From positions 1-51,914 of the forward strand of contig DAOTYI010000043.1 of assembly GCA_034434895.1 (NCBI GenBank): a stretch of 51,914 nt of DNA, written 5' to 3'. Shown in pieces: positions 3,544-51,914 of the stretch. Origin of the DNA: Anaerolineae bacterium. GTDB lineage: Bacteria > Chloroflexota > Anaerolineae > JAAYZQ01. Under the pieces are notes generated by a model. That model made no database searches. It was not told the DNA's origin and saw only the letters and a list, made by a program, of their open reading frames with translations. Made by a program: the position numbers and the translations under genes. Positions within the stretch are counted from its first letter, which is position 1; every line of letters starts with the position of its first letter.

Positions 3544-3571
3544 ATTAGATGCTCTGTGTTGTTGAGTCCCG

Positions 3572-6336: not shown

Positions 6337-6360
6337 CTGCCTGATTTGGGGGAGTGAAGC

Positions 6361-7871: not shown

Positions 7872-7882
7872 AAGCTCTTCCC

Positions 7883-7911
7883 TTGACAAACAGGCCGAAT
7901 GGCGGTATAAT
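7883..7911 (+). promoter_or_regulatory. perfect-consensus sigma-70 promoter
   Basis: TTGACA (7883-7888), a 17-nt spacer, then TATAAT (7906-7911). A GGGGAGGG RBS precedes the ATG at 7941. Confidence 0.7.
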
Positions 7912-7940
7912 GCTATGCGAAGGTCGGGGAGGGATGTTCT

Positions 7941-8909: not shown

Positions 8910-8915
8910 AAGAGC

Positions 8916-8940
8916 AGGGCAACAGCTCGCAGTTGCCCTA
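8916..8940. repeat. palindromic GC-rich element (REP-like), copy 1. Probable bidirectional terminator between convergent genes.
   Basis: AGGGCAACAGC-TC-GCAGTTGCCCTA. The same element occurs at 24662-24689 and 25393-25414. Its distal CCCTA supplies the TAG stop (8938-8940) of the minus-strand gene. Confidence 0.75.
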
Positions 8941-10845: not shown

Positions 10846-10874
10846 AACTCCTCCCTACCTCAATGACCTGTTAC

Positions 10875-10890
10875 CGCAGAGACGCAGAGA
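10875..10890. repeat. CGCAGAGACGCAGAGA short repeat (copy 1 of 3)
   Basis: The same 16-22-nt string occurs at 14604-14625 and 24629-24651, always intergenic. Confidence 0.6.
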
Positions 10891-10953
10891 TCCCTTGTCT
10901 TTCCTCGAAGCCTCCAAGAGCCAAGGGTGTATGACCAATTGTTGAACCATTCA

Positions 10954-11000
10954 CCACAAAGGCACGAAGGCAAATTCTTCGTGTCTTGGTGCCTTTGTGG
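10954..11000. repeat. hairpin repeat related to the CCACAAAGG core of the MITE-like family
   Basis: CCACAAAGGCAC (10954-10965) pairs with GTGCCTTTGTGG (10989-11000), with inner GAAG/CTTC pairing. Confidence 0.5.
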
Positions 11001-11052
11001 TCAGCCTGCCGGGTCAACGGCGTACCCCCCTGTGATCGAAGGCAAAATCGGT

Positions 11053-11079
11053 GTCCATCCGTCCCATCCGTGCTATCCG
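11053..11079. repeat. three tandem 9-mers (consensus TSCYATCCG)
   Basis: GTCCATCCG TCCCATCCG TGCTATCCG read directly in the intergenic gap. Confidence 0.45.
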
Positions 11080-11129
11080 TGTCCCATCAGGGGTCAACCT
11101 GTTATGAACCATCCCAGACCTTCCAGGTT

Positions 11130-26921: not shown

Positions 26922-26986
26922 GGAATGCGGAATGAGGAATGCGGAATGAGGAATGCGGAGTGCGGAATGCGGAATGCGGAGTGCGG
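26910..26986. repeat. tandem heptanucleotide array, 11 units (AATGCGG / AATGAGG / AGTGCGG)
   Basis: Units counted by hand: 26910-16, 17-23, 24-30, 31-37, 38-44, 45-51, 52-58, 59-65, 66-72, 73-79 and 80-86. The array contains the stop of the NB-ARC ORF and the first ATG of the TPR ORF. Confidence 0.9.
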
Positions 26987-35796: not shown

Positions 35797-37965
35797 TCAC
35801 CGCGTGCGTTCGGCCACGGCCAGGGTGAAGCGAAACGCACTGCCTTTGCCTGCTTCGCTCTCCACCCAGATCTGCCCGCCATGCAGTTCAACCAGCGATC
35901 TGGCGATGGACAGGCTCAGCCCCCGCCCCGGATGGTGCTGGACCAGAGGATGATCGGCGCGGAAAAAGCGCTCGAACACCCGGGGTTGATCCTCCGGCGC
36001 AATGCCGATCCCTGAATCCAGAACCGAGACCACAACCTTGGCCTGCTGCCCCTGCCCACCGTCCTGGAGCCGGGCCTCAATGGTGATCTGGCCTTTGGGC
36101 AACGTGTACAGGTAGGCGTTCATGAGCAGGCTGTTTAACACCTGGCCGATCCGCTGCCGGTCGGCATAGACCGGCGGCAGCCGGGAGGGCACCCGGACCA
36201 CCAGCCGCAGGTTCTTGTCCATCAACCGTTTCTCGAACGAGGAGGTGAGCTGCGCCACCACCTCGGCGAGGGAGACCGGTTCGAGGTGGAGCCGGGTTTC
36301 CCCTGTTTCCAGCCGCGAGATGTCCAGCAGGTCTTCCATCAAGGTGATGAGACGGTCGGTATTGCTTTCGATCCGGCGGACGATATCGGCCTGTCGCTCC
36401 TCCAGATCGCCCATGGCTCCGGAGAGCAGCATCTCGTTGTAGCCTTTGATGGCCGTCAGGGGCGAACGGAGCTGGCGGGCCATCGTCGCCACGAACCGGC
36501 TTTTCGCTTCATGGAGCTGCTGGGCCTCCCGATACAGGCGGGCATTCTCCAGGGCAATGGCGACCGGATGGGCGACGTTGCTCAGCCGTTCCACATCTTC
36601 CTGGGTGAAGGGGCCATGAACCTTGTTCAACAGTTCCAGGACGCCGATGCAGCGGTCCTGCACCAGCAGCGGCACACACAGAATGGAACGGGTGACAAAC
36701 CCGGTGGCCTGGTCCACCTGGGTATAGAACCGATCGTCGGCATAAGCATCGTTCACCACCATTGGCCGGTGTGCCAGGGCTACCTGCCCGGCGATCCCCT
36801 GCCCCAGCTTCAGGCGCAGGCCGCGCAGCGGCTCGATGGTGCCCAGCCAACTGGTGACGAACTCTAACTCCTGGCTGTCCTCATGCAGCAGCAACAGCGA
36901 TCCCCCTTCCACATGGAACATCTGGCCGATCTTGGCTGCGACCAGATCAAAGATCTGCTGTCGATCCAGGGTAGAGGTGACCGTCCGGGTGATGTCGTAC
37001 AGATAGGTCAGTTCCTCCACCCGCTGGGCCAGCGCCTTGTCGGTGGCCTGGTAGGCCTGCGCATTCTCGATGGCGATGGTCGCATAGTCGGCCAGGGCCT
37101 GAAGCATGGCCTCATCGTTGGCGGCAAAGGGCCGTTTGTCGCGGTGATTGGCCACCAACAACACCCCGACGGTGCGGCCCTTGATGCTCAACGGCACGGA
37201 CAGCAGGGCGCGGGCCTGATAGCCAGCCGCAATCGCGATCTCCTCCCCGGCGTCGCCTGCCAGGCGCAGCGGCTGTGAATCCCGGAAGACCCGGCCGACC
37301 AGGCTGTCCTCGATGCTCAGCCGCAAGATCTGCTCGCGCCTCTGCCCTGACCCTTTCCCGGCGCACAGCAACAGCGTGCCGGTCTGTGGTTCCAACAGCC
37401 ACAACGCCCCCTGGTCAGCACGGGTGATGAACACGGCCGCTTCCACCACGCGGTCCAGCACCTTATCCAGGTCCAGCAACGAGGTCACCGATTTGCTGAC
37501 CCCGAACAGCACCGTCAGCTCTTTGACCCGCTGCTCCAGGTCGCGGCGGGCCTGCTCCAGCTCCTGGCTCAGGCGTTCCCTGTCGCGCTGCAACTGCACC
37601 TGGGCCAGCACCCGCTCTATGGTGGCCAGGCCCCACTCGACATCGAACGGCTTGATCAGATAGTCCCTGACCCCCAGGCGGAAGGCCTGCACCGCCATAG
37701 ATTCGGAACCGTAGGCGGTCATCAGGATCACCGGCACCGTCTGTTGCTGTTCGGCCAACTGTTGGAGGATCTCCAGGCCGGAGATATCGGGCAGTTGGTG
37801 GTCGAGCAGGACCAGATCGGGCTGTTCCTCGGCCAGCAGACGCAGGGCCTGCTGGCCGGTGGCGGCCGCCAGCGGACTGTAGCCATGCTCCGGCAGGAAA
37901 TCCTGGACCAGGAACGAGCGCAGCCTGGCGTCGTCCTCTACCACCAGGATCCGTTCATGAGCCAT
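35797..37965 (-). CDS. REC-GAF-GAF-HisKA-HATPase protein with Arg in place of the phospho-acceptor His (pseudo-histidine kinase)
   Basis: Receiver ILVVEDDARL...DLVLLDHQLPDISG. Two GAF domains end in AIENAQAYQ and ALENARLYRE. The H-box reads FVATMARQLRSPLTAIKGY (Arg codon CGC at 36475-36477), against FISTVSHELRTPMTSIKGY in the neighbouring giant kinase. N and G boxes are present (LLMNAYLYT, DSGIGI, GRGLSLSI). The ATG at 37965 overlaps the upstream gene by 11 nt. Confidence 0.8.
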   Translation of the reverse strand: MAHERILVVEDDARLRSFLVQDFLPEHGYSPLAAATGQQALRLLAEEQPDLVLLDHQLPDISGLEILQQLAEQQQTVPVILMTAYGSESMAVQAFRLGVRDYLIKPFDVEWGLATIERVLAQVQLQRDRERLSQELEQARRDLEQRVKELTVLFGVSKSVTSLLDLDKVLDRVVEAAVFITRADQGALWLLEPQTGTLLLCAGKGSGQRREQILRLSIEDSLVGRVFRDSQPLRLAGDAGEEIAIAAGYQARALLSVPLSIKGRTVGVLLVANHRDKRPFAANDEAMLQALADYATIAIENAQAYQATDKALAQRVEELTYLYDITRTVTSTLDRQQIFDLVAAKIGQMFHVEGGSLLLLHEDSQELEFVTSWLGTIEPLRGLRLKLGQGIAGQVALAHRPMVVNDAYADDRFYTQVDQATGFVTRSILCVPLLVQDRCIGVLELLNKVHGPFTQEDVERLSNVAHPVAIALENARLYREAQQLHEAKSRFVATMARQLRSPLTAIKGYNEMLLSGAMGDLEERQADIVRRIESNTDRLITLMEDLLDISRLETGETRLHLEPVSLAEVVAQLTSSFEKRLMDKNLRLVVRVPSRLPPVYADRQRIGQVLNSLLMNAYLYTLPKGQITIEARLQDGGQGQQAKVVVSVLDSGIGIAPEDQPRVFERFFRADHPLVQHHPGRGLSLSIARSLVELHGGQIWVESEAGKGSAFRFTLAVAERTR

Positions 37966-40522
37966 AGGCCCCCTCCGCTGCCGGGGCCTCAGCCGGCCCA
38001 GGTCCTGTCCCGCCGGCGGTGGCCAGAGGCAGGGTAAAGCCAAACGTGCTGCCCTCGCCGACCTTGCTTTTGACCCACAGCCGACCGCCATGGAGCTCCA
38101 CCAGCGACCTGGCGATGGCCAGTCCCAGGCCGGTGCCCGGTTGCTCCCGCACCAGCGGGTTTTCGCTGCGGTAGAACCGCTCAAAGATGCGCTCTATTTC
38201 CTCTTTGGAGATACCGATGCCGGTATCGCTGATCGTGATTTCGGCCACCCCATCTTTCCGGCTGGAGACGATGGTGATCCGGCCTCCGGCCGGGGTGTAG
38301 CGGCAGGCGTTGCCGATCAGGTTGGTCAGGATCTGCACCGTCCGCTGCGGATCGGCCCTGATCAGGCCCGTGTCGGGCGACAGAGCCACCTGAATCTGGA
38401 GCCCTTTGTGCTCGATCAGTTCGGTCAGAGAATTCAGCGTCTCCTCCACCGCCTGGGGAAGGGAAAAGGGTTCAGGGTGAATCGTCAACCGCCCGGTTTC
38501 AAGTTTGGAAACGTCCGACAGGTCCCCGACCAGCCGCATCAGCCGCCTGGTATTCGTATAAGCGGTCTGCAGAAACCGTTGCTGCCTGTCGTTCAGTGGG
38601 CCAACCCGGCCATCCACCAATAAGTGCAGGTAGCCGTGGATGGAGGTCAGGGGGATGTTCAATTCGTGATAGACGGCCGAGATAAAGTCGCGCAACTCCC
38701 TGGTGCGCTCCTGGACCTTTCTTTCCAGCTCCTGGCTGAAGGCATGGACCTCTTCATAGAGGCGGGCGTTGGCGATGGCCGTGGCTGCCTGGTTGGCCAC
38801 CGTGCGCACCAGGTCCAACTCCTGGCGCCGATAGAGGTCGCCGGAGAGTCTGGCTCCCAACAGATAGACACCCACGAGCCTGCCCCCACTGGCCAGGGGC
38901 AGCACAAGCTGAACGCCGCTCTCTCTCCAGGTGGATAAGATCGGGTCCGCCTGTTCGCTGTCGAGCAGGAGGATCTGGTCGGTCTGGGTGAGGTGGGTGG
39001 CCAGGGGACTGTCCACCGGCAGGGACAGGGCCTCCTTTGCTTCAGAGCTGTCCGCTCCCCTTCGGGCCGATTGGCCGGCATCGGCAGGATCGGTCAAAAC
39101 CGGCAGGGGCTCCAGGCACGTTTCCTCCTGATTGAGCACCAGACACCAGGCGCCCTGGAGCAGCAACTGACGAGGCAGTTGCTGGAGCAGCAGCCGCGCC
39201 AGGTCGGCAAAACGGATGCTTTTGCTCAGCTCTTCACTCCACTGGATCAGAACACGCTGATAGTCCACCTGCTGGCGGAAAAAGGCCCGGTCTATAATGG
39301 CCTGAATCCTGGCTCGCATCGGGTTGACCAGGATGCCGATGAACAGGGCCGACAGGAACACGATCAGGGGATAGGCGCTGCTGCCGGCGGCGATGCCCAG
39401 GGCAGTGGACAGCAGGCTGATCAACAGCAGGTAGAGGGCGGCCAGGCAGGCGGTCAACAGGCCATAGACCATACTGCGGTTGACCACCAGGTCAATATCC
39501 AGCAGGCGGTAGCGCAGGATGGCAAAGGCGAAGGAGACAGGCAGGCAGATGGTGCTCAACAGCATCAGATAGTGCAATTCATAGGTCTGCTGCCGGAGCA
39601 CCGTCAGCACAATGTCCGCCCCGCTCACCACGACGACACAGCCCAGGCCCCACATAATCCATTGGGCCTGACGTTTCAGGGTCGCGTCCGTGGTCGTGGT
39701 GTACAGGTAGCCCATATAGGCCAGTCCAAAGGTGGCGCTGAGCGCCAGATAGCCGAAACCGATCTTGTCACTCAACAATGAATAAAAGGGCGCAAAAAAG
39801 ATGCCGGTGCCGGCCCTGACCGCCTGGTGAAAGGCTCCCACGGTGAAGGCCATCAGGACCAGGCTGGGGAGGTAGAGCAGGAACCACCAGCGGCTCCTGG
39901 CCAGCCACCGCTCCTGGGGGAAGGAGAGGAAGAAATGGATCACCAGGCCGGGCGCCAGAGTCAGGGCCACCGCCTGGAGATAGATGAGGGTGGTCGTTTC
40001 GGTGCCCACCAGGGCCAGATAGACCCCCAGGGCGATCGCCGTGAAAAAGAACAGGCGCGCCGTTCTGCTCTGGAACCGTTTCAGGCCGACCAACGTCGCA
40101 ATCGCCAGGAAAGAAAGGGCCACCAGGCTCTGCACAACCAGGGCCAGGTCCAGCTTCTTGTGGTAGAGCACAAGGGGAGCCAGGGTGAGGGTCTCGGCGC
40201 CCCGTTCCACGGTCAGGATGACCTGGCTGCCTGCCCGCTGACGGTTGATGAGCCGCCGATAGTCAAGCACATTGGCCACCTGCTGCCCGTTGACGGCCAC
40301 GATGCGGTCCCGGAGCTCCACCCCCAATTCCCGGCCCCGGTCGTGCACTTCAAAGATCTGCAGGTTGGCGTCGTAGTAAGCGCCCAGGATCTCCCGCACC
40401 GGATAGGCAGCCGCTTTGGAATAGATCCCCACGGCCTGGACGGTCAGGGTGCCTGCCGCCAGGAGGATCACCAGGAGGTGATGAGGCAGGTTCGCCAACG
40501 TTCTGTCCGTCTGCCGACTCAT
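37955..40522 (-). CDS. membrane sensor histidine kinase: PDZ-like domain, multi-TM sensor, GAF, HisKA, HATPase
   Basis: PDZ-like GVELRDRIVAVNGQQVANVLDYRRLINRQRAGSQVILTVERG, then ~7 TM segments. The GAF domain ends in AIANARLYEE. H-box FISAVYHELNIPLTSIHGY, with G boxes DTGIGI and GTGLGLAI. ATGA overlap with the giant kinase. Confidence 0.82.
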   Translation of the reverse strand: MSRQTDRTLANLPHHLLVILLAAGTLTVQAVGIYSKAAAYPVREILGAYYDANLQIFEVHDRGRELGVELRDRIVAVNGQQVANVLDYRRLINRQRAGSQVILTVERGAETLTLAPLVLYHKKLDLALVVQSLVALSFLAIATLVGLKRFQSRTARLFFFTAIALGVYLALVGTETTTLIYLQAVALTLAPGLVIHFFLSFPQERWLARSRWWFLLYLPSLVLMAFTVGAFHQAVRAGTGIFFAPFYSLLSDKIGFGYLALSATFGLAYMGYLYTTTTDATLKRQAQWIMWGLGCVVVVSGADIVLTVLRQQTYELHYLMLLSTICLPVSFAFAILRYRLLDIDLVVNRSMVYGLLTACLAALYLLLISLLSTALGIAAGSSAYPLIVFLSALFIGILVNPMRARIQAIIDRAFFRQQVDYQRVLIQWSEELSKSIRFADLARLLLQQLPRQLLLQGAWCLVLNQEETCLEPLPVLTDPADAGQSARRGADSSEAKEALSLPVDSPLATHLTQTDQILLLDSEQADPILSTWRESGVQLVLPLASGGRLVGVYLLGARLSGDLYRRQELDLVRTVANQAATAIANARLYEEVHAFSQELERKVQERTRELRDFISAVYHELNIPLTSIHGYLHLLVDGRVGPLNDRQQRFLQTAYTNTRRLMRLVGDLSDVSKLETGRLTIHPEPFSLPQAVEETLNSLTELIEHKGLQIQVALSPDTGLIRADPQRTVQILTNLIGNACRYTPAGGRITIVSSRKDGVAEITISDTGIGISKEEIERIFERFYRSENPLVREQPGTGLGLAIARSLVELHGGRLWVKSKVGEGSTFGFTLPLATAGGTGPGPAEAPAAEGAYGS

Positions 40523-43500
40523 GCTGGTTGCCTCTCCTCAATGGCTGCCTTGATCTCCCGGACAAGCATGTCAACCGACAGCGGCTTGGTCACATATTGC
40601 GCCGCCCCCATGCCCAACACCCGCACTCGATCCCGCTCCTTGTCCACCGGGCTGGCGGTGATAACGATGATCGGGATGGAACGGGTGGATTCCTCCCCCT
40701 TGAGGCGTCGGATCACCTCATAGCCGTCAATCCCCGGCATGCGGATGTCGAGCAGGATCAGGTCTGGCTGGAGTTCCGGCGTGCGTTCCAACGCCTCGCG
40801 GCCGCTGGCCGCCGTCCACACCTGGTAGCCGTGGAACGACAGAGCCTGATCCAGGAAGTTCAGAATATCGGGATCGTCGTCTACGACCAGCAGCCTGAGC
40901 GGTTCGCCTTTCTCATGGGGAGCCAGGGCCCGGCGCACACTCTCCAGCAGTTTCTCCTCGTCAAACGGTTTCACCACATAATCCACCGCCCCCAGGGCAT
41001 ATCCCCGGTCGGCCTCGGTCAGGACAGAGATGATGATCACCGGGATCAGGCTGGTCACCGGATGTTCTTTGAGCTGCTCCAGCACCGCAAAGCCATCCTG
41101 ATCGGGGAGCATGATGTCCAGGGTAATGAGCTGAGGTTGCTCCTCTTTGGCCAGCCACAGGGCATCTTCCCCGCTGCCGGCCAGGAGCACCTGATACCCC
41201 TCCCCTTCGAGGTGTCGCCGCAGGAGCAGGGCCAGATCACGGTCATCTTCCACCACCAGGATCTTGGGACGCCGCCCGACGGCCGGGGGCGGTTCCACGG
41301 CAATCAGGTCGGGGTGGACGATCTCCGCTTCGGGCAGTTTGGCGCCGGCCAGGGGCAGGGTAAAGCTGAACACGGAGCCAACTCCCAACTCGCTCTCGAC
41401 CCAGATTTCGCCTCCCAACATCTCAACGAACATCTTGACGATGGCCAGGCCCAGGCCGGTGCCACCGGCTTCCTGCACCAGCGGGTGATCGGCCCGGTAA
41501 AATCGGTCGAACACCCGGGGCAGATCGTCCGGCCCGATGCCGATGCCGGTGTCGGCCACATCCACCTGCAGGAACCCATCCCGCTGCCGGAGCGACACGG
41601 TCACGCGCCCCCCGCTGGGCGTGTATTGCCAGGCGTTGGCCAGGAGGTTGTTCAAGACCTGGGTCACCCGGTCGGCGTCGCCTCGCACCTGGGGCAGCCC
41701 TGGTACTTCCATCCATTCCAGTTTCAACCCCTTTTCCCGGTACTGTTCCTGGAAGGCACGGACAACCTGGGTGATGAGGCTGGCCAGGTCCAGCGGTTCG
41801 ATGGTCAGGCGAATGCGGCCGGTTTCAATGCGCGAGATGTCGAGGATGTCGTTGACCAGGGCGGTCAGGCGGTCGGCGTTTGACTTGATGATCTGCAAAA
41901 AGCTCCGCTGGGCATCGCTCAGACCCCCCGCCATCCCCAGGAAGAGCAGGTCGGTGTAGCCCTTGATGGAGGTCATGGGGGTGCGCAGTTCATGAGACAC
42001 GGTGGAGATAAATTCGTTCTTGAGCCGTTCCACCTCCGCCTCCCGGCTGATGTCGCGCAACGCGGCCACCAGGCCAGGCGCGCCGCCCAGTTCGGTGATC
42101 AGCGGGGCGATGGTGACGGCCAACACCCGCTTGCCGGCGGTGAGGCGCACCGTGCTGACCTGGGTCCGGGATGGGTCATCGGCCGGGGTTTCCAGCCTCT
42201 GGCGCAGCTCGGAGTAGAGGGCCTGGGCCAGCTCCCGGTCGGTCGCCGTCTCCCCCAGGCCCAACATGTGGCGGAAATGCTCCCCCTGAAGCGCGATGGC
42301 CGAAAAGCCCAGGAGCTCCTCCGCCGCCGGGTTGACCAGCAGCACCCGTCCATTGTGGTCAAGCACCAGCACCCCGTCGGCGATTGATTCCAGGATGGCC
42401 CGGCTCTTGGCTGCCTCGGCCTGCTGCGCCTGAAGCATCCGGCCGAGCTGGTCTGCCTGGTCGGTGATATAGGCGTACAGGTCCGAGTTGTTGACGGCGA
42501 TGGCCACCTGCACGCCGGCTGCCGTCACCAGTTGCAGGTGTTCTTCGGTGAAATAGCCCACCTGCGGATGGCCCAAGGTCAGCACCCCCAGGATGTCGCC
42601 TCCGCCCACCGACAGAGGGGCGGCCACCACCGAGCGGATGTGGGGGTCCTGGCCATCGGTGGTCACCCAGCGCGGATCGGTGGTGATGTCGGAGATGAGC
42701 ACCGGTTGGCGATGTTCCAGGACCCAGCCGGCCAGCCCAAAGCCACGCCGCAGCGGGGTGCGCTCGTTCAAGGGGATCAGGCCCGGCTTGCGTTGGAGGG
42801 AAGCCCGGAGGTGGAGGTGGCCGGTTTCCTGGTCCACCAGGGTGATGGTCCCGTGCTCGACCCCCATCACGTCGGCAAAGAGCTGCAAGGCGCGTTGCAG
42901 CACCCGCTCCAGCTCCAGCGAAGCCCCCAGCTCAGAGGTGATGCGATAAAGCGCCTCGGCGCGGTCGCGCTGCAACGTGAGTTCCTGCATGGCCTGTTCC
43001 AGGTCGCGGGTGCGGGCTTCGACCCGTTTTTCCAGTTCGCTGCTAAAGTTCACAATCTGCCCGTAGAGTTGGGCATTCCGCACCGCTGCAGCCGCCTGGG
43101 CGGCAATGGTGGATAGCAGCTTGAGGTGGTCCTGGCTGTACACATATTCCCGCTCGTAGCTCTGGACGGCGATGACACCCACCACCTGGTCAGCCGCGAT
43201 CATCGGCACACCCAGCCAGGAACGGCAGGTGCCGGCTGTGATCTCCTGCCCCCTCTCCCGATAGATCCCGGCCACGCCGGTAGGCAGCAACAAAGGCTCC
43301 CTGGTGCGGATGATCCGGCCGGTCAACCCCTCTCCTGCCTTCCGTGGCCGCCAATCCTCCCGCTGCTCCGGGTCTACAACAAAGGGGAAGGTGATCTCAT
43401 CCCGTTCTTCATCGTAGAGGGCGATATAAAAGTTGGTTGTATCCATCAGGCGGCTGACCTGCTGGTAGACCGTTTGCAGCAACTGATCCAGTTCCAGGGT

Positions 43501-46500
43501 GGAGCTGAGGGCCTGGGACATCTCGTTCAGGACGGCCAGCTCGTTGATCCGCCGCTCCCGCTCCTGGAAGAGGGAGGCGTTCTGGAAAGCGATGGCCGCC
43601 TGGTTGGCAATCGTGGTCAGCAGGCGCAGATGGCCTTCGTCAAAGGCATCCTCCTGCTCGTAGCTCTGCACGGCCATGGCGCCGATGACCCGGCCCTCGG
43701 CGATCATCGGCACGCCCAGCCATGACCGGGCGGTGGCTCCGGCGCGGGTCAGGCCATGCTCTTCAACAAAGGCCTCGATATTGCGGCGCAGCAGCAACGG
43801 CTGGCCGGTGCGGATCAGGTAGCTGGTGAGGCCCTGGCCCAGCTTGAGGGTCAGGGGGGCTTCCCGCCGGCCGTTCTCCACGACAAAGATAATGTGGATC
43901 AGTTCCCGGTCTGCATCGTACAGGGCGATGAAAAAGCTGCGGTTGTCCAGCAGTTTGCCCACCTGGCTGTGGATCAGGGTGGACAGTTGATCGACATCCA
44001 GAGTGCCGCTGATGGCCCGGCCGATCTCGTTGATGGTCGCCAGTTCGGCCACACGGCGCTGGCTCTCCTGGAAGAGGCGGGAGTTCTGGATGGCGACGGC
44101 CAGTTGATCGGCGGCGATCTCCAGGGCAGCGGCATCCTCTTCGCTGAAGGCGTTGGGCTGATCCGCCTCTGCCTCCAGCACACCCACCACACGGCCGGCG
44201 ATCCGGATCGGCACCGACAGAGTCGCCCGCGAATCCCAGCCGGTGACCGGCAGGTTGCGCTCGTCCGCCAGGGAATCGGGACTGAGGACCGTCTTGCCGC
44301 TGGCCGCTGCCAGGCCGATGAGGCCCGTTCCCACCTTCTGGCGGTAGTTGGGCGGGATGACCGGCCAGAATTCATCGTTGGCAGCAGCCACATACAGCTC
44401 CTGCGCCGCTTCATCCACCAAAAAGACGGCCACCCGGAAATAGCCCAGGATCTGGTGCAGCGCCCTGACCGTGGTGTCCAGCACCTCCTGGAGTTCCAGT
44501 TGGGCAGCGGTGCGGCGGCCGATCTCGTTCAACAGGGAAAGGCGCACGGCTGCCTGCTGCGTGCTGGCAAACAGGCGGGCGCTCTCCAGAGCCACCGCGG
44601 CCTGGTCGGCCAGGGTGGTCAGCAGCATCTGGTCGGCCTCGGTCAGGGCATATTTGGCGGAGCTGTCGGCAGTGAGCACGCCGATCACCTGCGGACCGGC
44701 CAGGATCGGCACCAGCATCATCGAGCCGATCGGCACCGGGCCGGGGACAAAGCGGGGTTCCTGCTCCGTATCGGGGATGAGCAGAGGGGTGCGGGTGGCT
44801 GCCACATGGCCGACCAGGCCCTCACCGGGGGCAAAGCGCAGGTGGCGCATGTCCGCCAGGCTGACGCCATAGCTGGCCGTCCCGACAAATTTGCCGTCTG
44901 TCGGATCGGCCTGGAAGATGGCGCTCGATTCGCAGGGCAGCAGGCTGCACACCGCCCGGACCACGATGTTCTGGACCTGAAGGGGGTCCTGGACCTGGGT
45001 CAGGGTGCGGCCCACCTCGTTGATCAGGGCCAGGCTGTCGCCACGGTGCCGGGCATCGCTATACAGGCGGGCGTTCTCCACGGCGATGGCTGCCTGGTTG
45101 GCAAAGATGGTCAGCGCCTCCAGCGTCTGGCGTCCTGGCCGCCGCCCATCGCGGGGATCGTCCACCGAGATGATGCCCACCAACCGCCCGCCCACACCCC
45201 ACAAGGGAACCAGGAGCATGTCGTGCGGGTGCCATTGCCCCTCGTGCCACTCCTCGATTTCGGGCATCGGGGTCACGGTGTGGACCCCGGCTCCCCACTC
45301 CGCTTCCTTCTGGAAGGGGAAGAAGTAGCAGGCTCCCTGGCGGTACTCCTCCCGCAGAATCTGAAGATACCGCTCCACCGGCTGGCGGATCCGTTTCATT
45401 TCCTCAAAGGTATCCAAGGGCAGCCCGGCGGCCACGGCCCGCCGCAGCAGAGGCGGTGTCCCCTCCACAACACTGATGACGACAAGGTTAAAGCCGACCG
45501 TCTCCTGGATGGCGTAGGCGATCTCCTCCAGCGTCTCTTCCAACGGCACATCGGCGCGGAGTTTTTGCCCCACCCGCAGCAGGCCCTCCATCTGCGCCGT
45601 GCGCTGGCTGAGGGCGGTATTGAGCCGCACCTGTTCCTCAAACCGGATCGAGTTGCCGATGGCAATGGCCGCCTGGTCGGCCAGGGCGCGCACAAACTCC
45701 TGATCGTCGGCGTTAAAGGCCGCGGTCCGGGTGTGATACAGGCTGATCAGGCCCACAACCTCGCCGGCATATTGAACCTGCATGCCCCCGATTTCGGTCA
45801 CCGGCTGGGCGGTAAAGATGGGCACGATCAGCGCCGAGCAGGTGTCAGGCCGGATGCAGGCCAGGCAACCATCGCGAGGGATATTCTCCACAATGCGGGC
45901 CTGGCCGCTGTGGAGCACCTGCAGGATCAGGCTATCCCGGTCGGGGTCCAGCAGTTCCTGTTCGATGAACGCCCGTTCCTCGTCCGAATAGCCCAGGGCA
46001 GCCCGCACAGTCGGCCGCCCGGTGTTGGAGTCCAGGAGCACGACGTTGCCATGGGTGGCCCCGGTGGTGTGCAGGGCCGATTCGAGCACAACCTGGAGGA
46101 TATGATCCGACTCCAGGGTGGCGTTCAGTTCCCTGGTGGTGCGTTGGAGAGCCACCAGCTCATCCACCCGGGCCTGGAGGCGCTCATCGGTCTGCTCATA
46201 CAACCGGGCATTCTCGATCGCCACGGCTGCCTGGTTGGCCAGGGCCTGACACAGGCGCAGGTCGTCGGCCGAGAATTCACGGGCCCGACGACGCTCACAC
46301 AGCTCGGCCAGCCCCACCACCCGGTCACGGGTGACCAGCGGGACCATCAGCAGTGACTTGTGCCCGAACTGCTCCAACAGGGCCCGTTCAGCCGGATCGG
46401 CCTGGGGATCGGCGGCCTGGATCACACGGGGCTGGCGGTCGCGCAGGACCTGGGCGGTGGTCGGATATTCATCCAACGAGTAGGAGACCCCGATGTCACT

Positions 46501-49500
46501 GGTATACGGCAGGTCTGTCCATTCGGGATCGGCTGCCTCGGAGACCAGGGTGCGGACCTGGTTCCCGGTTGGGTCCCAGTCGGAAAGGGTGCAATTGGAC
46601 ACATCCAGGGCGCGGGCCATCTGGCGGGCCACCGCCCGCAGCACCTCGTTCAACTCCAGGCTGGAGGAGATGGCGGCGCTGGTCTCGTACAGGATGGCCT
46701 GCTCCCGGAGCTGGCGTTGCTGGAGTTCAAAAAGCCGGGCGTTCTCGATGGCAATGGCCGCCTGGTCGGCAAAGAGTTGCAGGGCGGCGACATCCTCTTC
46801 GTCGTAGGCCGCCACCCGGTCGCTGGCCAGCTCCAACGTGCCGACAAAGGTCTCGCCGACCTTCAATGGCAATCCGATATAGGACCGGACCGGGGTGTCG
46901 GGTTCGACCACCTTGGGCTGCACATCGGTGCGGGCCGTGGTGTCGGCGATAAGCAGGCTCTGCTGATGGCGGGCGATCCAGCCGGTGAACCCTTCGTTCA
47001 GGCGGTAGATGCCGCCGCTGCGGGCCTTGTAGCGTGGATCGCCGGCGCTGGCCCGGGTCACCAGCGCCTGTTCCCCCTCCTGCCACAGGCAGATTTCGGC
47101 AATGTAATAGTCCATCAGCTCCTTGAGACGGGCCAGGATCAGGTTCAGGGTGCGCTCCAGGTCCAGGCTGGCGCCGATCTCCCGGCTGATCTCGCCGATG
47201 GCCGACAGCATCTGCGTCCGCCGTCGCTCCTGCTGGAACAGGCGGGCGTTCTCCAGGGCGATGGCCGCCTGGTTGGCAAAGGTCTTGAGGGTGTCGAGCT
47301 CTACGGCGGTGAACTGGTGCGGTTGAGCATAATACACGGTAAACTCGCCCAGCGGTGCTTCCCGGCCACGCAGCGGGACGTCGGCCAGGGCGCGGAAGCC
47401 TTCGGCCCGCGCCAGCGGGATAAAGGCGGCCATCCGTGGGTCGGTTTCAATGTCGGTCACCACCAGCGGCTCCTCGCCAAGGAGGACCTGGGCACGGCTG
47501 TCGGGCGTGACCTCAATATTCTGGGCGCCGGCCACATATTCGTCGCTCAGGCCACGGCTCATCCGCAGGCTGACACGGCCACGCTCCAGGACAAAGATCG
47601 CAGCTTTCTGGCAGCCGGTGACCTGGATCACCGAATCTACAATGGTCTTCAACACCTCATCCGGGTCAAGGACCGAGCTGACCACCGCCGACACCTGGTT
47701 AAGGGTGGCCAGGTCGGCGGCCCGCTGCCGCTGTTCCTGGAACAGGCGGGCGTTCTCCAGAGCGATGGCGGCGTGGCTGGCCAGATGCTCCAGGAAATGC
47801 AGGTCATCCTGGTTAAAGGCACCCACCCGATCGCTTTCCAGGTGGAGGACACCGAGGACCCGGTCTTCACACTGAATGGGGACCGCGACGGCGGAGCATG
47901 TCGTCGTCGCCAGGGGGACACACTCAGGGGTGGCACTCACATCCGCCATCAGAAGAGGCTGGCCGCTGTGCGCCACCCGGCCGATCATGCCCTGGTCCGC
48001 AGGCAGGGAAGCCATCTCTGACCATTCAGCCGGCCAGAAACGGATCTCCGGCGGCTGTCCTTCGGCCCGCAGGATGGCGATGGCCCCCAGGGTGGCCTGA
48101 CAGGCCTGGGCAGCCCGCTGCAACACCAGGTTGATGGTCCGGTCATAGTCCAGGCTGGTGCCCAGTTCGTGGTCAATCTCTTCGATGGCAGCCAGCTCTT
48201 GCAGCCGCCTGTGCAACGCCTCGTCGGTCTGCTCGTACAGGCGGGCGTTCTCTACGGCGACGGTCGCCTGGTTGGCCAGCGCCTGGCAGATCTGGATCTC
48301 GTCGGCGGAGAAGGAGCGCTCGCTGCGGCGGTGAGCGGCGACGATAAAGCCGCGCGGCTGCTCCTGGACATACAACCCCACAAACAGACAGGAACGGATG
48401 CCAAGCGCCTGGAGCATGGGACGAAGCCTGGCGTCCAGGCGGGGGTCGGTGTCAACCGATTCGATGGCCACATAGCCGGTCTGACGGATCAGGGCACGCA
48501 GCCAGGGGTGCTCCAGGACGTTATAGCGGGTTCCTTGCAGGTTCGAGAGTGTGCCTTCCGGGTCGTGGAGGGCGCGGAGCACGGTCCAGCCCTGGCCCAG
48601 CCGGTCGGTTTCGTGCAGGAACACGCCGCACACATCCACGCCCAGGGCAGCCACCGTCTGTTCGGCGATGGTGGACAACACCTGCTGAGTATCCAGCGTG
48701 GCCAGGCTGCGGCCCACCTGGTAGAGGGTGTTGATCTGTCGCAGGCGGCGGTGGGTCTCCTCGTACAGATGGGCGTTCTCCAGGGCGATAGCTGCCTGGG
48801 CAGCAAAGGTGGACAGCAGGTTCAGGTCTATCTCATCAAAGGGGGTGCGGTCCTGTTTGTTGATGACTTCGAGAGCGCCGATGACGCAGTCCCGGCTAAT
48901 AAGGGGCACACACAGGATCGAGCGGGTCTCAAAACCGGTCATGGTATCCGGCGCAGCCGACCAGCGCCGGTCGGTATGCACATCGTTGACAAATTGCCCC
49001 TCTCCCGTCCGGATCACGGCCCCGGCAATCCCCTCACCAGGGGCCAGGCGCCGGCCGACCAGCGATTCACCGGCCGGGCCGAGGGCCACGCGGAAGACCA
49101 ATTCACCGGGCTCCTCCCCCAGCCGGCAGGGGCTATCCAGGAGCAGGAGTGAGCTGGCCTCGGCATTGAGGATCTCCATCGCCTTGGCCGTCACCAGATT
49201 GAGCACCGACTCCAGCTCCAGGGTGGAGGTCACGGTGCGGCCCACCTCATAGACGGTGGACAGTTGCTGGAGGCGCTGCGAAGCGTCGCGGCTGATTCTC
49301 AGTTGCCGCGCCTCCATCGAAACGAGATAGTTCACCGCAAAGGTCAGGATCAGATAAATGAGCAGATTCCAGACAGCCTGGAAGGGGAGTGATATACCCA
49401 GGAAAAGCCAGGAATAGATGGACGGCCAGGTGAAGATCAGCCATAGCCCGGCGCTGAGGGCCAGAGCCAGCCATAAGCCGAAGCGCGCCGCGACGATCCC

Positions 49501-49815
49501 GGCCAGGGCAAAGCCCAGGATGCTCCCCCAACCGGACAGATCGCCGCTGAGATAAAAAGCGGTTACACCCAACGCGACATCAAAAAGGCTAAAGGCCACA
49601 TGTTTCCACCTGCCCGGTCCAGGCCACGGCGAGATCAGGTAGGCAACCGCGTGCACCACCAGAATCCCACCCAGGGCGAGCGCCGGGAAGAATTCCTGGC
49701 GGACCAGCGCCGCGATCAGCAGCAACAGCAGGGCTGCTCGCTGGAACCAGAGCAAGGCGCGTTCGATGCGGCTTTCAAGCCAGGCCGGCAGGTTACGACC
49801 GTTCATGCCCCACAC
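40519..49815 (-). CDS. giant (3098-aa) hybrid sensor histidine kinase: N-terminal TM region, 13 tandem GAF domains, PAS, HisKA, HATPase, two receiver domains
   Basis: There are 13 recurrences of the GAF-terminal motif A(A/V)A(L/I)ENARL(Y/F)xx, from AIALENAHLYEE to AIAVNNSDLYAY. PAS is ILESIADGVLVLDHNGRVLLVNPAAEELLG (~aa 2474) and the H-box is FISTVSHELRTPMTSIKGY (~aa 2607). G boxes are DTGIGI and GTGLGLAI. REC1 is KILVVEDDRD...ITLDIMLPDQDG (~aa 2851) and REC2 is RLLVVDDDPD...ILLDIRMPGIDG (~aa 2974). Confidence 0.85.
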   Translation of the reverse strand: MWGMNGRNLPAWLESRIERALLWFQRAALLLLLIAALVRQEFFPALALGGILVVHAVAYLISPWPGPGRWKHVAFSLFDVALGVTAFYLSGDLSGWGSILGFALAGIVAARFGLWLALALSAGLWLIFTWPSIYSWLFLGISLPFQAVWNLLIYLILTFAVNYLVSMEARQLRISRDASQRLQQLSTVYEVGRTVTSTLELESVLNLVTAKAMEILNAEASSLLLLDSPCRLGEEPGELVFRVALGPAGESLVGRRLAPGEGIAGAVIRTGEGQFVNDVHTDRRWSAAPDTMTGFETRSILCVPLISRDCVIGALEVINKQDRTPFDEIDLNLLSTFAAQAAIALENAHLYEETHRRLRQINTLYQVGRSLATLDTQQVLSTIAEQTVAALGVDVCGVFLHETDRLGQGWTVLRALHDPEGTLSNLQGTRYNVLEHPWLRALIRQTGYVAIESVDTDPRLDARLRPMLQALGIRSCLFVGLYVQEQPRGFIVAAHRRSERSFSADEIQICQALANQATVAVENARLYEQTDEALHRRLQELAAIEEIDHELGTSLDYDRTINLVLQRAAQACQATLGAIAILRAEGQPPEIRFWPAEWSEMASLPADQGMIGRVAHSGQPLLMADVSATPECVPLATTTCSAVAVPIQCEDRVLGVLHLESDRVGAFNQDDLHFLEHLASHAAIALENARLFQEQRQRAADLATLNQVSAVVSSVLDPDEVLKTIVDSVIQVTGCQKAAIFVLERGRVSLRMSRGLSDEYVAGAQNIEVTPDSRAQVLLGEEPLVVTDIETDPRMAAFIPLARAEGFRALADVPLRGREAPLGEFTVYYAQPHQFTAVELDTLKTFANQAAIALENARLFQQERRRTQMLSAIGEISREIGASLDLERTLNLILARLKELMDYYIAEICLWQEGEQALVTRASAGDPRYKARSGGIYRLNEGFTGWIARHQQSLLIADTTARTDVQPKVVEPDTPVRSYIGLPLKVGETFVGTLELASDRVAAYDEEDVAALQLFADQAAIAIENARLFELQQRQLREQAILYETSAAISSSLELNEVLRAVARQMARALDVSNCTLSDWDPTGNQVRTLVSEAADPEWTDLPYTSDIGVSYSLDEYPTTAQVLRDRQPRVIQAADPQADPAERALLEQFGHKSLLMVPLVTRDRVVGLAELCERRRAREFSADDLRLCQALANQAAVAIENARLYEQTDERLQARVDELVALQRTTRELNATLESDHILQVVLESALHTTGATHGNVVLLDSNTGRPTVRAALGYSDEERAFIEQELLDPDRDSLILQVLHSGQARIVENIPRDGCLACIRPDTCSALIVPIFTAQPVTEIGGMQVQYAGEVVGLISLYHTRTAAFNADDQEFVRALADQAAIAIGNSIRFEEQVRLNTALSQRTAQMEGLLRVGQKLRADVPLEETLEEIAYAIQETVGFNLVVISVVEGTPPLLRRAVAAGLPLDTFEEMKRIRQPVERYLQILREEYRQGACYFFPFQKEAEWGAGVHTVTPMPEIEEWHEGQWHPHDMLLVPLWGVGGRLVGIISVDDPRDGRRPGRQTLEALTIFANQAAIAVENARLYSDARHRGDSLALINEVGRTLTQVQDPLQVQNIVVRAVCSLLPCESSAIFQADPTDGKFVGTASYGVSLADMRHLRFAPGEGLVGHVAATRTPLLIPDTEQEPRFVPGPVPIGSMMLVPILAGPQVIGVLTADSSAKYALTEADQMLLTTLADQAAVALESARLFASTQQAAVRLSLLNEIGRRTAAQLELQEVLDTTVRALHQILGYFRVAVFLVDEAAQELYVAAANDEFWPVIPPNYRQKVGTGLIGLAAASGKTVLSPDSLADERNLPVTGWDSRATLSVPIRIAGRVVGVLEAEADQPNAFSEEDAAALEIAADQLAVAIQNSRLFQESQRRVAELATINEIGRAISGTLDVDQLSTLIHSQVGKLLDNRSFFIALYDADRELIHIIFVVENGRREAPLTLKLGQGLTSYLIRTGQPLLLRRNIEAFVEEHGLTRAGATARSWLGVPMIAEGRVIGAMAVQSYEQEDAFDEGHLRLLTTIANQAAIAFQNASLFQERERRINELAVLNEMSQALSSTLELDQLLQTVYQQVSRLMDTTNFYIALYDEERDEITFPFVVDPEQREDWRPRKAGEGLTGRIIRTREPLLLPTGVAGIYRERGQEITAGTCRSWLGVPMIAADQVVGVIAVQSYEREYVYSQDHLKLLSTIAAQAAAAVRNAQLYGQIVNFSSELEKRVEARTRDLEQAMQELTLQRDRAEALYRITSELGASLELERVLQRALQLFADVMGVEHGTITLVDQETGHLHLRASLQRKPGLIPLNERTPLRRGFGLAGWVLEHRQPVLISDITTDPRWVTTDGQDPHIRSVVAAPLSVGGGDILGVLTLGHPQVGYFTEEHLQLVTAAGVQVAIAVNNSDLYAYITDQADQLGRMLQAQQAEAAKSRAILESIADGVLVLDHNGRVLLVNPAAEELLGFSAIALQGEHFRHMLGLGETATDRELAQALYSELRQRLETPADDPSRTQVSTVRLTAGKRVLAVTIAPLITELGGAPGLVAALRDISREAEVERLKNEFISTVSHELRTPMTSIKGYTDLLFLGMAGGLSDAQRSFLQIIKSNADRLTALVNDILDISRIETGRIRLTIEPLDLASLITQVVRAFQEQYREKGLKLEWMEVPGLPQVRGDADRVTQVLNNLLANAWQYTPSGGRVTVSLRQRDGFLQVDVADTGIGIGPDDLPRVFDRFYRADHPLVQEAGGTGLGLAIVKMFVEMLGGEIWVESELGVGSVFSFTLPLAGAKLPEAEIVHPDLIAVEPPPAVGRRPKILVVEDDRDLALLLRRHLEGEGYQVLLAGSGEDALWLAKEEQPQLITLDIMLPDQDGFAVLEQLKEHPVTSLIPVIIISVLTEADRGYALGAVDYVVKPFDEEKLLESVRRALAPHEKGEPLRLLVVDDDPDILNFLDQALSFHGYQVWTAASGREALERTPELQPDLILLDIRMPGIDGYEVIRRLKGEESTRSIPIIVITASPVDKERDRVRVLGMGAAQYVTKPLSVDMLVREIKAAIEERQPA

Positions 49816-49830
49816 TCACAGATTGGCCCT

Positions 49831-50727
49831 TTAGACCCCCTGTTGGGCACGGCGCCGGGCTTCGGCGGCTACCTCTGTGATCTCCCGGATGTCGGCAAAG
49901 GGGGCGGTGTCGTGGTGGATCAGGCCGACCGCCAGGGTCATCAGCGGCGCTTTTTGGATATCCCCCCGGCCATTCACCACCTCAATATAGCCCCGCTCCC
50001 GGTCCCGGAAGTTGTAGAAGGTCATGACCTCCTCGTTGAAACGCTGGATCAGGCGGTTTTTGATCGCGGGTGAGACCTCCGGGGAGCTGATGATGATAAA
50101 GTCGTCGCCCCCGATGTGGCCGATAAAGTCGGTGCCGGTGCCCAGTTCATCCACCACTTCGGTCAGCAACATGGCCGTGAAGCGCAGCACATCGTCGCCG
50201 GCCACAAAGCCATAGACATCGTTAAAGTCGTTGATGTGGTTGATGCCGATATAGAGCACCGACCAGCCTTTGCGGCGCATGATCTGGCGCAACTGATCCT
50301 CGATGAGCTTGCTGCTGGGCAGGCCGGTCACCGGGCTGGTCAGGCTCAGCCAGCTAGAGCGGTGCAGGGAGTTCTGCACGCGCAGCAGCAAGAGCTGGAG
50401 GTCGAACGGCTTGGTGATATAGTCGTCGGCACCCAACTCCAGCCCGGCGATCTGATCGCTGCGCTCATCCCGCTGGGTGAGGAAGATAATGGGGATGTGG
50501 CTGGTGCGCAGATTGGCGCGCAACTGACGGCAAACCTCATAGCCGTTGATGTCGGGCAGCATGATGTCCAGGATGATCAGATTGGGCAGTTTGCGGCGGC
50601 AAATCTCCAGCGCCTCCTCTCCCCGGGTGGCGACGTTGCTCTCGTAGCCCTGAGAATCAAAATAGATGCGCAGCATGTTAGAGATGTCAAAATCGTCTTC
50701 GACAATCAGCAGGCGTCCTTTGCTCAT
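49831..50727 (-). CDS. response regulator with GGDEF-family output domain carrying a non-canonical GGDDF motif
   Basis: Receiver LLIVEDDFDI...LIILDIMLPDINGYE...IIFLTQR...YITKPF. The output domain has PVTGLPS..., INHINDFNDVYGFVAGDDVL and GHIGGDDFIII. There is no RxxD I-site 5 residues upstream. Confidence 0.8.
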   Translation of the reverse strand: MSKGRLLIVEDDFDISNMLRIYFDSQGYESNVATRGEEALEICRRKLPNLIILDIMLPDINGYEVCRQLRANLRTSHIPIIFLTQRDERSDQIAGLELGADDYITKPFDLQLLLLRVQNSLHRSSWLSLTSPVTGLPSSKLIEDQLRQIMRRKGWSVLYIGINHINDFNDVYGFVAGDDVLRFTAMLLTEVVDELGTGTDFIGHIGGDDFIIISSPEVSPAIKNRLIQRFNEEVMTFYNFRDRERGYIEVVNGRGDIQKAPLMTLAVGLIHHDTAPFADIREITEVAAEARRRAQQGV

Positions 50728-50814: not shown

Positions 50815-51906
50815 TCAGGGCAGGGAATCATGCTTTCGTGCTGCATGGGCCTTCTTTCTGGTTTCTTCGATCTGTTCATCGCTCAAGGGCTGTCCGAAAC
50901 TGCGAAACCCGGCCAGCCGAATTCCATGCCTGGCGGCCATACGGGCCATCTCCTCGACCCGTTCCAGGGAGATCTCCCGGCCCAGGCTATAGCTTTCAAA
51001 GCGGCCTTCCAGGACCAGGGCGGCAGTTTCGGCCATGCAGCCATAGGCCTGACCCGGCGGCAAGCCGAAATCAAAGCCGAAATCTACCGCACCGGGTAGC
51101 TCTACCACCCCCCCCTCGATCACCAGCAGATCGTCCCGCAGCGCAGCGACACGGCGGGAGACATTGCGCGGTCGGGCCACATCGCACACGACGGCTCCCG
51201 GCTTCAGATGTTCCGGCTCGATGATCGGTTGCAGGGAAGTCGTCACGGCCAGTACGATGTCGGCCTGGCGGATCGCGGCCAGATCGGTGGTCGCCACGGC
51301 CCGGCCACCGGCCGCTTCAATCTGGGCCTGCACCTCCTGCAAACGGTCCGGCTTGCGGCCCACCAGCAGCAGTTGGGAGACGGAACGGGCCAGGAGTCGG
51401 GAACAGGCCCGCCCGATGGAACCGTACGCGCCGACGACGGCTGCCACACACCCCGCCGGCTCAAGGTCCATCCGCCGGGCCGCTTCCAACGCAGCCTCGA
51501 TCGTCACGCTGATCGTAAAACTGTTGCCGGTCGTCACCGGGATCCTCAGGCTCCGGGCGATGGTGATCCCGCCGTCGCCGACCACGGAGGTATAAGCCCC
51601 CAACCCCAGAAGTTGAGCACCCAGCCGCTCGGCCAGCCGTCCGGTCTGGATGATCTTGTGGTATGCCACCCGCACCGGCACAGTCAGCATCCGCCTGGGG
51701 GTCAAGGGGCAGGCGATCAGCCAGCCCTCAATCTCTTTGCCGGTGGCCAGCGAGCGGATGCCGGTGATGTGAGACAGCCGGACGGGGGGGAAGAAACGGC
51801 AGAAGTAGTCAATGACGGCCGGTGGCAGCCTGCCCAATAAGGGGAACTTGCGGGCCACATCCTTTTGGGGTTCGACAGGGTGAATGATGAACGCAAAATT
51901 ATCCAT
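50815..51906 (-). CDS. acyl-ACP-reductase-like NAD(P)-dependent oxidoreductase (COG5322 / AAR family, shikimate-DH-like Rossmann domain)
   Basis: It is colinear with cyanobacterial AAR as I remember it. Paired motifs (this ORF / AAR) are FAFIIHPVE / FGLIGHLTS, LGAYTSVV / LGGFTSII, TTGNSFT / TTGNTHT and VVGAYGSIGRACSRLL / VVGATGDIGSAVCRWL. The catalytic-Cys context is AYGCMAETAALVLEG / MFACFAEAMLLEFEG. ISLERVEEMARMAARHG matches ITIEKMEAIGEASVRHG. Confidence 0.65.
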   Translation of the reverse strand: MDNFAFIIHPVEPQKDVARKFPLLGRLPPAVIDYFCRFFPPVRLSHITGIRSLATGKEIEGWLIACPLTPRRMLTVPVRVAYHKIIQTGRLAERLGAQLLGLGAYTSVVGDGGITIARSLRIPVTTGNSFTISVTIEAALEAARRMDLEPAGCVAAVVGAYGSIGRACSRLLARSVSQLLLVGRKPDRLQEVQAQIEAAGGRAVATTDLAAIRQADIVLAVTTSLQPIIEPEHLKPGAVVCDVARPRNVSRRVAALRDDLLVIEGGVVELPGAVDFGFDFGLPPGQAYGCMAETAALVLEGRFESYSLGREISLERVEEMARMAARHGIRLAGFRSFGQPLSDEQIEETRKKAHAARKHDSLP

Positions 51907-51914
51907 TGTGGAGG

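Follow-up and report, generated by a model that had tools for sequence, protein, structure and literature searches.

Serial GAF domains are known from the tandem-GAF phosphodiesterases (PDEs) and from CyaB2, in which two GAFs are coupled to a PDE or cyclase output. Among sensor kinases, the bacterial and plant phytochrome kinases, with the order PAS-GAF-PHY-histidine kinase (HK), have one GAF plus PHY, while DosS (DevS) and DosT have two GAFs and a kinase of the HisKA_3/NarL class. A dimeric build around a helical spine is found in phytochrome kinases, WalK/VicK and YF1. The gene described here encodes a hybrid sensor histidine kinase with 13 GAF domains in series, of a class unlike that of DosS/DosT. 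It lies on the minus strand of contig DAOTYI010000043.1 (assembly GCA_034434895.1), from an uncultured Anaerolineae (Chloroflexota) host; the window referred to below is this whole stretch of 51,914 nucleotides (nt). That one uninterrupted open reading frame is present, as an initial annotation of the DNA had it, is borne out: the frame runs for 3098 codons from a GTG without a break. The public gene call places the start at the ATG at 49806, three codons after the GTG, giving a protein of 3095 amino acids (aa) of identical sequence (P0002).

The kinase gene is genuine, intact and single-copy. Within its large family it is nonetheless ordinary, and other members have more units. Each of its GAF positions is an ancient paralogue with orthologs of its own, under purifying selection. 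As to function, we lean towards a membrane-anchored hybrid kinase of a large unstudied orthogroup, in which a dimeric helical spine would sum several cytoplasmic GAF inputs onto one kinase. Giant multi-GAF kinases of this kind pose the question of how one signal passes, or many sum, along about a dozen serial sensor modules.

Architecture and age of the GAF array

The domain order given in the initial annotation, a membrane anchor followed by 13 GAFs, PAS, HisKA, HATPase and two receivers (REC), is recovered in full. With the GAF families PF01590, PF13185 and PF13492, Pfam finds 13 GAF_2 stretches (E 9e-216), 13 GAF (E 4e-210) and 12 GAF_3, and a profile made from the kinase's own units returns exactly 13 domains, each at E <= 3e-46. 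All of these units also exceed the cut-off in a genome-wide scan. The array was cut at the recurring C-terminal helix motif, which places the unit ends at residues 351, 527, 692, 860, 1029, 1206, 1392, 1585, 1749, 1915, 2083, 2251 and 2447. The helix and strand order of the GAF fold is present in the AF2 models of the units that were modelled (GAF1, 11, 12 and 13). Beyond the array, PAS and both receivers are matched by Pfam, as are HisKA (E 2.7e-21) and HATPase_c (E 1.7e-30), and HK853 and WalK are matched at E 1e-43 to 1e-47. In the translation the H-box is intact (FISTVSHELRTP, with SHELRTP at about residue 2608), the ATP-binding boxes N, G1, F and G2 are intact (NNLLANA, DTGIGI, FDRFYR, GTGLGLAIVK) and the acceptor Asp is present in both receivers (LITLDIMLP and LILLDIRMP). 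No NCBIfam model reached its cut-off for the giant kinase or its neighbours.

The membrane anchor is seen as about six hydrophobic helices within the N-terminal 175 residues in the hydropathy profile, and as six helices at residues 13-194, with short loops between them, in an AlphaFold model of residues 4-360 (pLDDT 85.6). The last of these, transmembrane (TM) helix 6, continues for 53 residues into GAF1 in the model. This domain is kept in 55 family members. It has no Pfam or NCBIfam match, and the Pfam scan does not detect 5TMR-LYT (for comparison see PMC11109136). When the model was submitted to Foldseek the GAF1 part dominated the matches, which therefore do not bear on the six-helix bundle.

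Pairwise protein identity among the 13 GAFs is 17-36 %, with only GAF11 and GAF12 closer to each other (48 %). At the DNA level the sole repeated element is a short tract coding for the C-terminal helix, which shows 60-84 % identity over 62 nt. The array is free of near-identical DNA repeats, and the longest exact run common to two unit ends is 25 nt (GAF5/GAF7), with 24 nt for GAF3/GAF4. A phylogeny of the individual GAFs, which the initial annotation had proposed, was built from 111 units of nine proteins. Each unit position forms its own clade with support of 97-100, the stems of these clades are long (0.5-1.9 changes per site) and the tips short, and GAF11 with GAF12 and GAF3 with GAF7 are the sister pairs. 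The same 13 units in the same order were found in a same-genus genome, in P0005 (82 % identity) and at locus L004, where the frame is likewise of 3098 codons. Against the 82 % identical L004 ortholog the ratio of non-synonymous to synonymous substitution rates (dN/dS) is 0.10-0.32 in each of the 13 units and 0.11 in the PAS-kinase core. Because of the low unit identity, the positional orthologs, the deep clades and the per-unit dN/dS, the duplications are old and predate the spread of the family. This agrees with the old duplication and divergence that had been suggested from the sequence; recent tandem amplification is ruled out by the low identity, the deep unit clades and the lack of near-identical repeats.

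The initial annotation further held that the C-terminal motif degenerates progressively along the array. The variants it quoted are all present at the units named, but those of units 7 and 9-13 are constant within each ortholog class (AIGNA.RF, ALES.RLF, AVRNAQLY and AVNNSDLY among them). They are class signatures, not decay.

Family size and changes in unit number

The view that 13 GAFs in series is extreme does not survive comparison with the homologues, which carry 6-22. A search over 5.8 billion proteins gave 4688 significant matches among 8000 scored candidates of comparable length, and the named homologues were nearly all from Anaerolineae or Chloroflexia metagenome-assembled genomes (MAGs). 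Counted by the own-unit profile, members of the close family (P0002-P0076) have 6-15 GAFs and more distant homologues reach 22; in P0119 (4407 aa) Pfam finds 22 GAF_2 stretches together with a kinase and two receivers. The unit profile was also run against 1.84 billion cluster representatives (50 % identity), with 337,751 matches at E <= 0.001; of the 150 best-scoring clusters, about 57 had at least 13 matched GAF stretches, and the highest number was 21. The window kinase is near the upper end of its own orthogroup in unit number. Its membrane domain occurs in single copy in 9 of the 23 species genomes of the window's order, where it heads frames of 1899-3098 aa, and one further frame headed by it (818 aa) is probably cut by a contig end.

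Found throughout the orthogroup are the six-helix N-terminus, the ordered GAF classes, the PAS-HK-REC-REC end, and REC-GGDEF-like and PDZ-GAF-HK neighbours. The Chloroflexota relatives carry no annotation beyond 'GAF domain-containing protein' or 'PAS domain S-box-containing protein', and no description of a poly-GAF family was found in the literature on multi-GAF kinases in Chloroflexota or Anaerolineae. Giant multi-GAF kinases are common in uncultured Anaerolineae and, as far as we found, experimentally unstudied. A separate observation concerns P0123 (3792 aa), a database representative with 16-21 GAFs in which Pfam finds no kinase, receiver or other output domain. Within the window's own genome (3.3 Mb, 86 GAF_2 matches), other multi-GAF frames lie on contigs C41 (2075 aa), C194 (1753 aa), C42, C73 and C202.

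A best-match map of the GAFs of 80 homologues onto the 13 units showed strict colinearity, and the units are orthologous position by position at 50-90 % identity. Almost all members have units 7-13; the presence of units 1-6 varies, and some members have extra units. Since deep and well-supported clades are formed by the variable classes too, unit loss is the best reading of the shorter proteins. Whichever GAF class comes first, the membrane domain is retained. Family members differ by whole modules cleanly lost or gained, through recombination in the conserved DNA that encodes the C-terminal helix motif. A nearly isogenic case is provided by P0003 and P0004, which are 97.1 % identical to the window protein and lack exactly residues 682-849 (168 aa), that is, GAF4. 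At the DNA level the locus of this variant, L079 (ENA ERZ27296003 k141_89098, 3001-11784), is 97.0 % identical, 504 nt shorter and encodes a 12-GAF kinase in the same operon. Its junction falls inside the tract GCCATCGC(T/C)CTGGAGAACGCCCGCCTGTTCCAG, which is identical at 32 of 33 positions at the GAF3 and GAF4 ends, and it bears the signature of homologous recombination between conserved motif-coding tracts. A k=141 assembly would not be misled by a repeat of only 33 nt. GAF4 is absent from P0006 too, which has an extra 192-aa unit after residue 1204. The family is natural material for the question posed above: its membrane domain and kinase core stay the same while the orthologs have from 6 to 15 units, a near-isogenic pair is one unit apart and linker length obeys a strict rule.

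A proposed helical spine, its possible inputs and the alternatives

This rule rests on the number of residues that separate the invariant Asn of the C-terminal motif from an anchor fixed in the unit that follows. For the window protein the successive distances are 27, 32, 28, 28, 28, 32, 35, 28, 28, 28, 28 and 53 residues. Over 1240 junctions of 121 proteins they are 28 (741 junctions), 32 (189), 35 (162), 53 (105), 46 (16) and 39 (2), with about 22 off the series by one residue. The classes are thus 28 plus 0, 4, 7, 11, 18 or 25, that is 7n or 7n+4, a series that coiled coils tolerate. An AlphaFold model of residues 1916-2830 (pLDDT 78) has an unbroken helix of 46 residues from GAF11 to GAF12, a pair of helices of 38 and 29 residues with a four-residue break from GAF12 to GAF13, a 55-residue helix from GAF13 to PAS and a 36-residue helix from PAS to DHp. 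The nearest solved architectures to this GAF11-13/PAS/DHp/CA model are the phytochrome kinases, WalK/VicK and YF1. That linker lengths follow the heptad is known for helical-spine sensor kinases such as these (reviewed in PMC6798134).

Among the residues conserved at 90 % or more within an ortholog class of GAFs, many are polar or aromatic, lie in strands and loops and not only in helices, and differ between classes; examples are EEWHEGQW...PRDG in class 8, DPE..REDW.PR...C.SWLGVPM in class 12 and AGDPRYT in class 5. Conservation of this kind exceeds what a spacer calls for, yet is no proof of ligand binding. GAF1 matches 5w10, 2zmf, 1ykd, PDE5 and PDE2 (E 2e-21 to 2e-13) and superposes on cAMP-bound Lcd1 with a Foldseek TM of 0.81 at 36 % identity. 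Its NK..(5)..FDE and D-x-x-T-G-F-x-T segments align to the same segment of Lcd1 and PDE10A. The residues predicted to contact the cyclic nucleotide (cNMP) are assigned by comparison with PDE2A GAF-B. GAF1 is probably a cyclic-nucleotide site, and such an input is plausible because the genome encodes two class III nucleotide cyclases.

Two other sensing modes were considered and set aside. No CH or DxCF Cys motifs occur in residues 179-2447 and there are no PHY or phytochrome Pfam matches, which argues against a photoreceptor. For GAF3, which is nearest to the haem-binding GAF-A of DosT and DevS, the PYHPPMRT/PLHHPPMRT segment of those proteins aligns with PLATTTCS. The proximal His that ligates haem in DevS, taken to be that of PPYHPPMR and placed in the loop ahead of the last strands, has no counterpart at the aligned position, and DosT-type haem binding by GAF3 is for this reason not expected.

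On the output side, the gene directly upstream encodes a REC-GGDEF-like protein that is the most conserved member of the operon (74-96 % identity across orthologous loci). It has a GGDDF signature and its first metal-binding Asp is replaced (IGINH as against IDVD), so that the domain may be an inactive or re-purposed cyclase. A search for HPt (PF01627) gave no match at E <= 0.001 in this 94.7 % complete genome, in which a divergent or unassembled HPt is possible; the same search was positive in 9 of 14 reference genomes. As no HPt is detectable, it is unlikely that both receivers of the giant kinase act in a phosphorelay of the classical kind.

Taken as a mechanism, the reading that we favour would run as follows. 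The kinase would be a parallel homodimer, with its linker helices joined into a single unbroken coiled coil as the spine. Several GAFs would serve as separate cytoplasmic inputs, GAF1 probably for a cyclic nucleotide. The states of the GAFs, possibly together with a signal from the membrane domain, would be relayed by the spine to DHp and CA and determine their balance of kinase and phosphatase activity. The phosphoryl group would go to the receivers of the kinase itself and, most likely, to the REC-GGDEF-like protein encoded upstream. Several points weigh against this. The AlphaFold models are of monomers. The linker lengths are inherited within unit classes, so that the 1240 junctions amount to perhaps 15-25 independent cases and the chance of five non-zero classes all falling at 0 or 4 modulo 7 is about 0.002 and not astronomically small. 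In the canonical linkers the motif is followed by about six polar residues. A classical hydrophobic seam is not evident there, and the idea of a heptad core, with an a/d hydrophobic seam and the invariant Asn within it, was rejected on this ground; in view of the lack of a clean seam no specific register is claimed. The missing metal-binding Asp of the GGDDF partner means that the output may not be cyclic di-GMP synthesis, and the role of the two receivers is left unclear in a genome that encodes two-receiver hybrid kinases and has no HPt match. Finally, whole units have been lost without decay of the gene and, as members carry 6-15 units, no single N-terminal GAF is indispensable, which would fit the role of a spacer too.

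That role is the basis of the first alternative, in which most GAFs bind nothing and act as rigid beads that hold the membrane domain and the kinase at a set distance or give their connection its mechanical and cooperative properties; sensing would be left to the membrane domain and perhaps to one or two GAFs or the PAS. The constancy of the membrane domain and kinase core in close relatives while the unit number varies, the clean loss of GAF4 in a 97 % identical strain, the strictly quantised linkers with their continuous helices and the lack of a close liganded relative for most units are all in accord with it. A pure spacer, however, has no need of 13 different and positionally conserved sequences. 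Each class keeps polar and aromatic loop residues of its own (such as EEWHEGQW in class 8), dN/dS is low in every unit and GAF1 closely resembles ligand-bound cNMP GAFs. We regard this explanation as rather unlikely, though a live rival. Of the two roles suggested in the initial annotation, multi-ligand integrator and long rigid signalling rod, a mixture would fit the conserved loops, purifying selection and quantised helical linkers.

It is also conceivable, with a rather small probability in our judgement, that the GAFs are docking sites which pair with those of other proteins such as the PDZ-GAF kinase and the REC-GAF-GAF pseudo-kinase, making the giant kinase the hub of a hetero-oligomeric complex. 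The 86 GAF_2 matches of the 3.3-Mb genome with its several other multi-GAF frames, and the two co-transcribed GAF kinases, one of them without an acceptor His, would be in keeping with this. GAF dimerisation in the solved tandem-GAF proteins PDE2A and CyaB2 is, however, reportedly homomeric, and the operon contains no GAF sensor array that lacks an output.

A more far-reaching reading is conceivable as well. Beyond its structural part, the AIALENARLF-coding tract could be a built-in site of in-frame recombination, by which populations of these bacteria add, drop and shuffle modules on a coiled-coil spine that preserves register, with each of the 13 GAFs binding a different metabolite in a many-input analogue integrator. 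If true, this would imply strain-level diversity in what one kinase integrates; we think it rather unlikely. That the length of the array instead reflects repeat collapse or expansion during metagenome assembly is effectively refuted, for although we are dealing with a MAG broken into 307 contigs, the units are too dissimilar (the DNA tracts that they share are of 24-33 nt, far below assembler k-mer sizes), their order recurs in the same-genus 3098-codon frame and in P0005, and every unit has orthologs in many independent assemblies.

Gene neighbourhood and comparison with known systems

The kinase stands third in a minus-strand operon with the order NAD-binding reductase-like protein, REC-GGDEF-like protein, giant kinase, PDZ-GAF kinase, REC-GAF-GAF kinase-like protein, alpha/beta hydrolase and Wzy_C-family membrane protein (Table 1). 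This order recurs in at least eight related loci. The two genes that follow the kinase were thought in the initial annotation to repeat its GAF-HK design. They do have GAF and kinase parts in common with it; the array design is absent from both, and the second lacks the acceptor His, with Arg in its place. The orthologs read MARELRSP (L004) and VAQELRSP (L002). As they too have Arg or Gln at the acceptor position, this gene is a conserved pseudo-kinase and not the product of a sequencing error.

The reductase-like gene at the head of the operon has a Shikimate_DH fold; of the NCBIfam models, the N-terminal part of PigE matches it best, though below threshold, and acyl-ACP reductase comes next. 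The Wzy_C/O-antigen-ligase-like gene keeps its synteny with the kinase operon at every related locus that was checked. On the plus strand of the window are a gene for sigma-70 region 4 with an NB-ARC/STAND NTPase, followed by a TPR protein, which together resemble a split STAND-type regulator, and a gene for a ComEC-type competence channel (DUF4131-Competence-Lactamase_B).

Table 1. Positions of the kinase gene, its domains and neighbouring features in the window, with protein residues where given
Feature	Residues	Position	Strand	Basis or remark	Nearest solved structure
Whole gene, hybrid sensor histidine kinase		40519..49815	-	Frame reading, Pfam, public P0002 record	
N-terminal membrane domain	4-178	49282..49806	-	Six predicted TM helices, short loops	
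GAF1	179-351	48763..49281	-	Profile, sequence, Foldseek; nearest to cAMP/cGMP-binding GAFs	Lcd1-cAMP, PDE10A, CyaB2, PDE5, PDE2 (E 2e-21 and weaker; Foldseek TM 0.81)
GAF2	352-527	48235..48762	-	Pfam, own-unit profile, homologue map	
GAF3	528-692	47740..48234	-		DosT/DevS GAF-A (E 2e-9)
GAF4	693-860	47236..47739	-	Absent from 97 % identical 12-GAF variant	
GAF5	861-1029	46729..47235	-	Own-unit profile, homologue map	
GAF6	1030-1206	46198..46728	-	Own-unit profile, homologue map	
GAF7	1207-1392	45640..46197	-	Internal insert, motif AIGNSIRF	
GAF8	1393-1585	45061..45639	-	Conserved insert with EEWHEGQW	
GAF9	1586-1749	44569..45060	-		PtsP GAF (weaker)
GAF10	1750-1915	44071..44568	-		Free Met-sulfoxide reductase (weaker)
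GAF11	1916-2083	43567..44070	-	Sister of GAF12; tree, AlphaFold	
GAF12	2084-2251	43063..43566	-	Tree, AlphaFold	Lcd1 (weaker)
GAF13	2252-2447	42475..43062	-	Preceding helical linker 25 residues longer	Nlh1/NifA GAFs (E 1e-13)
PAS	2470-2596	42028..42408	-	Pfam, AlphaFold	
HisKA/DHp	2599-2666 (Pfam)	41818..42021	-	H-box FISTVSHELRTP	
HATPase_c catalytic domain	2712-2823 (Pfam)	41347..41682	-		
Receiver 1		40921..41265	-	Pfam	
Receiver 2		40552..40890	-	Pfam	
33-nt tract, GAF3 end		47737..47769	-	Codes for AIALENARLFQ; 32/33 identical to 47233-47265	
33-nt tract, GAF4 end		47233..47265	-	Partner in the GAF4-removing crossover of L079	
NAD-binding reductase-like gene		50815..51912	-	Head of conserved operon	
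REC + GGDEF-like gene		49831..50727	-	Directly upstream; candidate cognate response regulator	
PDZ-GAF-HisKA-HATPase gene		37955..40522	-	Downstream; 4-nt overlap with kinase stop	
REC-GAF-GAF-HisKA-HATPase gene		35797..37965	-	Third gene; H-box MARQLRSP at 36469-36483	
Wzy_C/O-antigen-ligase-like gene		32341..33819	-		
ComEC-type gene		29946..32384	+		
Sigma-70 region 4 + NB-ARC/STAND gene, then TPR protein		25479..28177	+		

Of the described systems, the tandem-GAF proteins PDE2A (3ibj/1mc0), PDE5A (3lfv/3mf0), PDE10A (2zmf), PDE6 and the cyanobacterial adenylyl cyclase CyaB2 (1ykd), together with the cAMP-binding GAF of Leptospira Lcd1 (5w10), are those that GAF1 is like in both sequence and fold. 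A long connecting helix between GAFs is common to the PDE/CyaB2 tandems and to the array, and by analogy the general logic may be alike, with ligand binding by GAFs controlling a C-terminal catalytic domain. The cNMP-class likeness is limited to GAF1 and, weakly, GAF12. In the bacteriophytochrome and plant phytochrome kinases (9eut, 8upk, 8isj), as in the engineered or natural PAS-HKs YF1 (4gcz), VicK (4i5s) and WalK, modules stand on a continuous helical spine that ends in DHp, which is the arrangement predicted by the model for the giant kinase; the latter is without a bilin-lyase signature. The GAF-A of DosS/DosT, mycobacterial sensor kinases for redox state and gases (2vzw, 2w3d, 2y79), ends in AIAV(D/A)NARL(F/Y), the same helix motif as that of the array. 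As the motif is shared with these proteins, AIALENARLF is a hallmark of a GAF subfamily and is not special to the giant kinase. The relation to the Chloroflexota poly-GAF hybrid kinases is one of direct membership, since membrane domain, order of the unit classes and operon are all shared, and nothing essential differs between them and the kinase described here.

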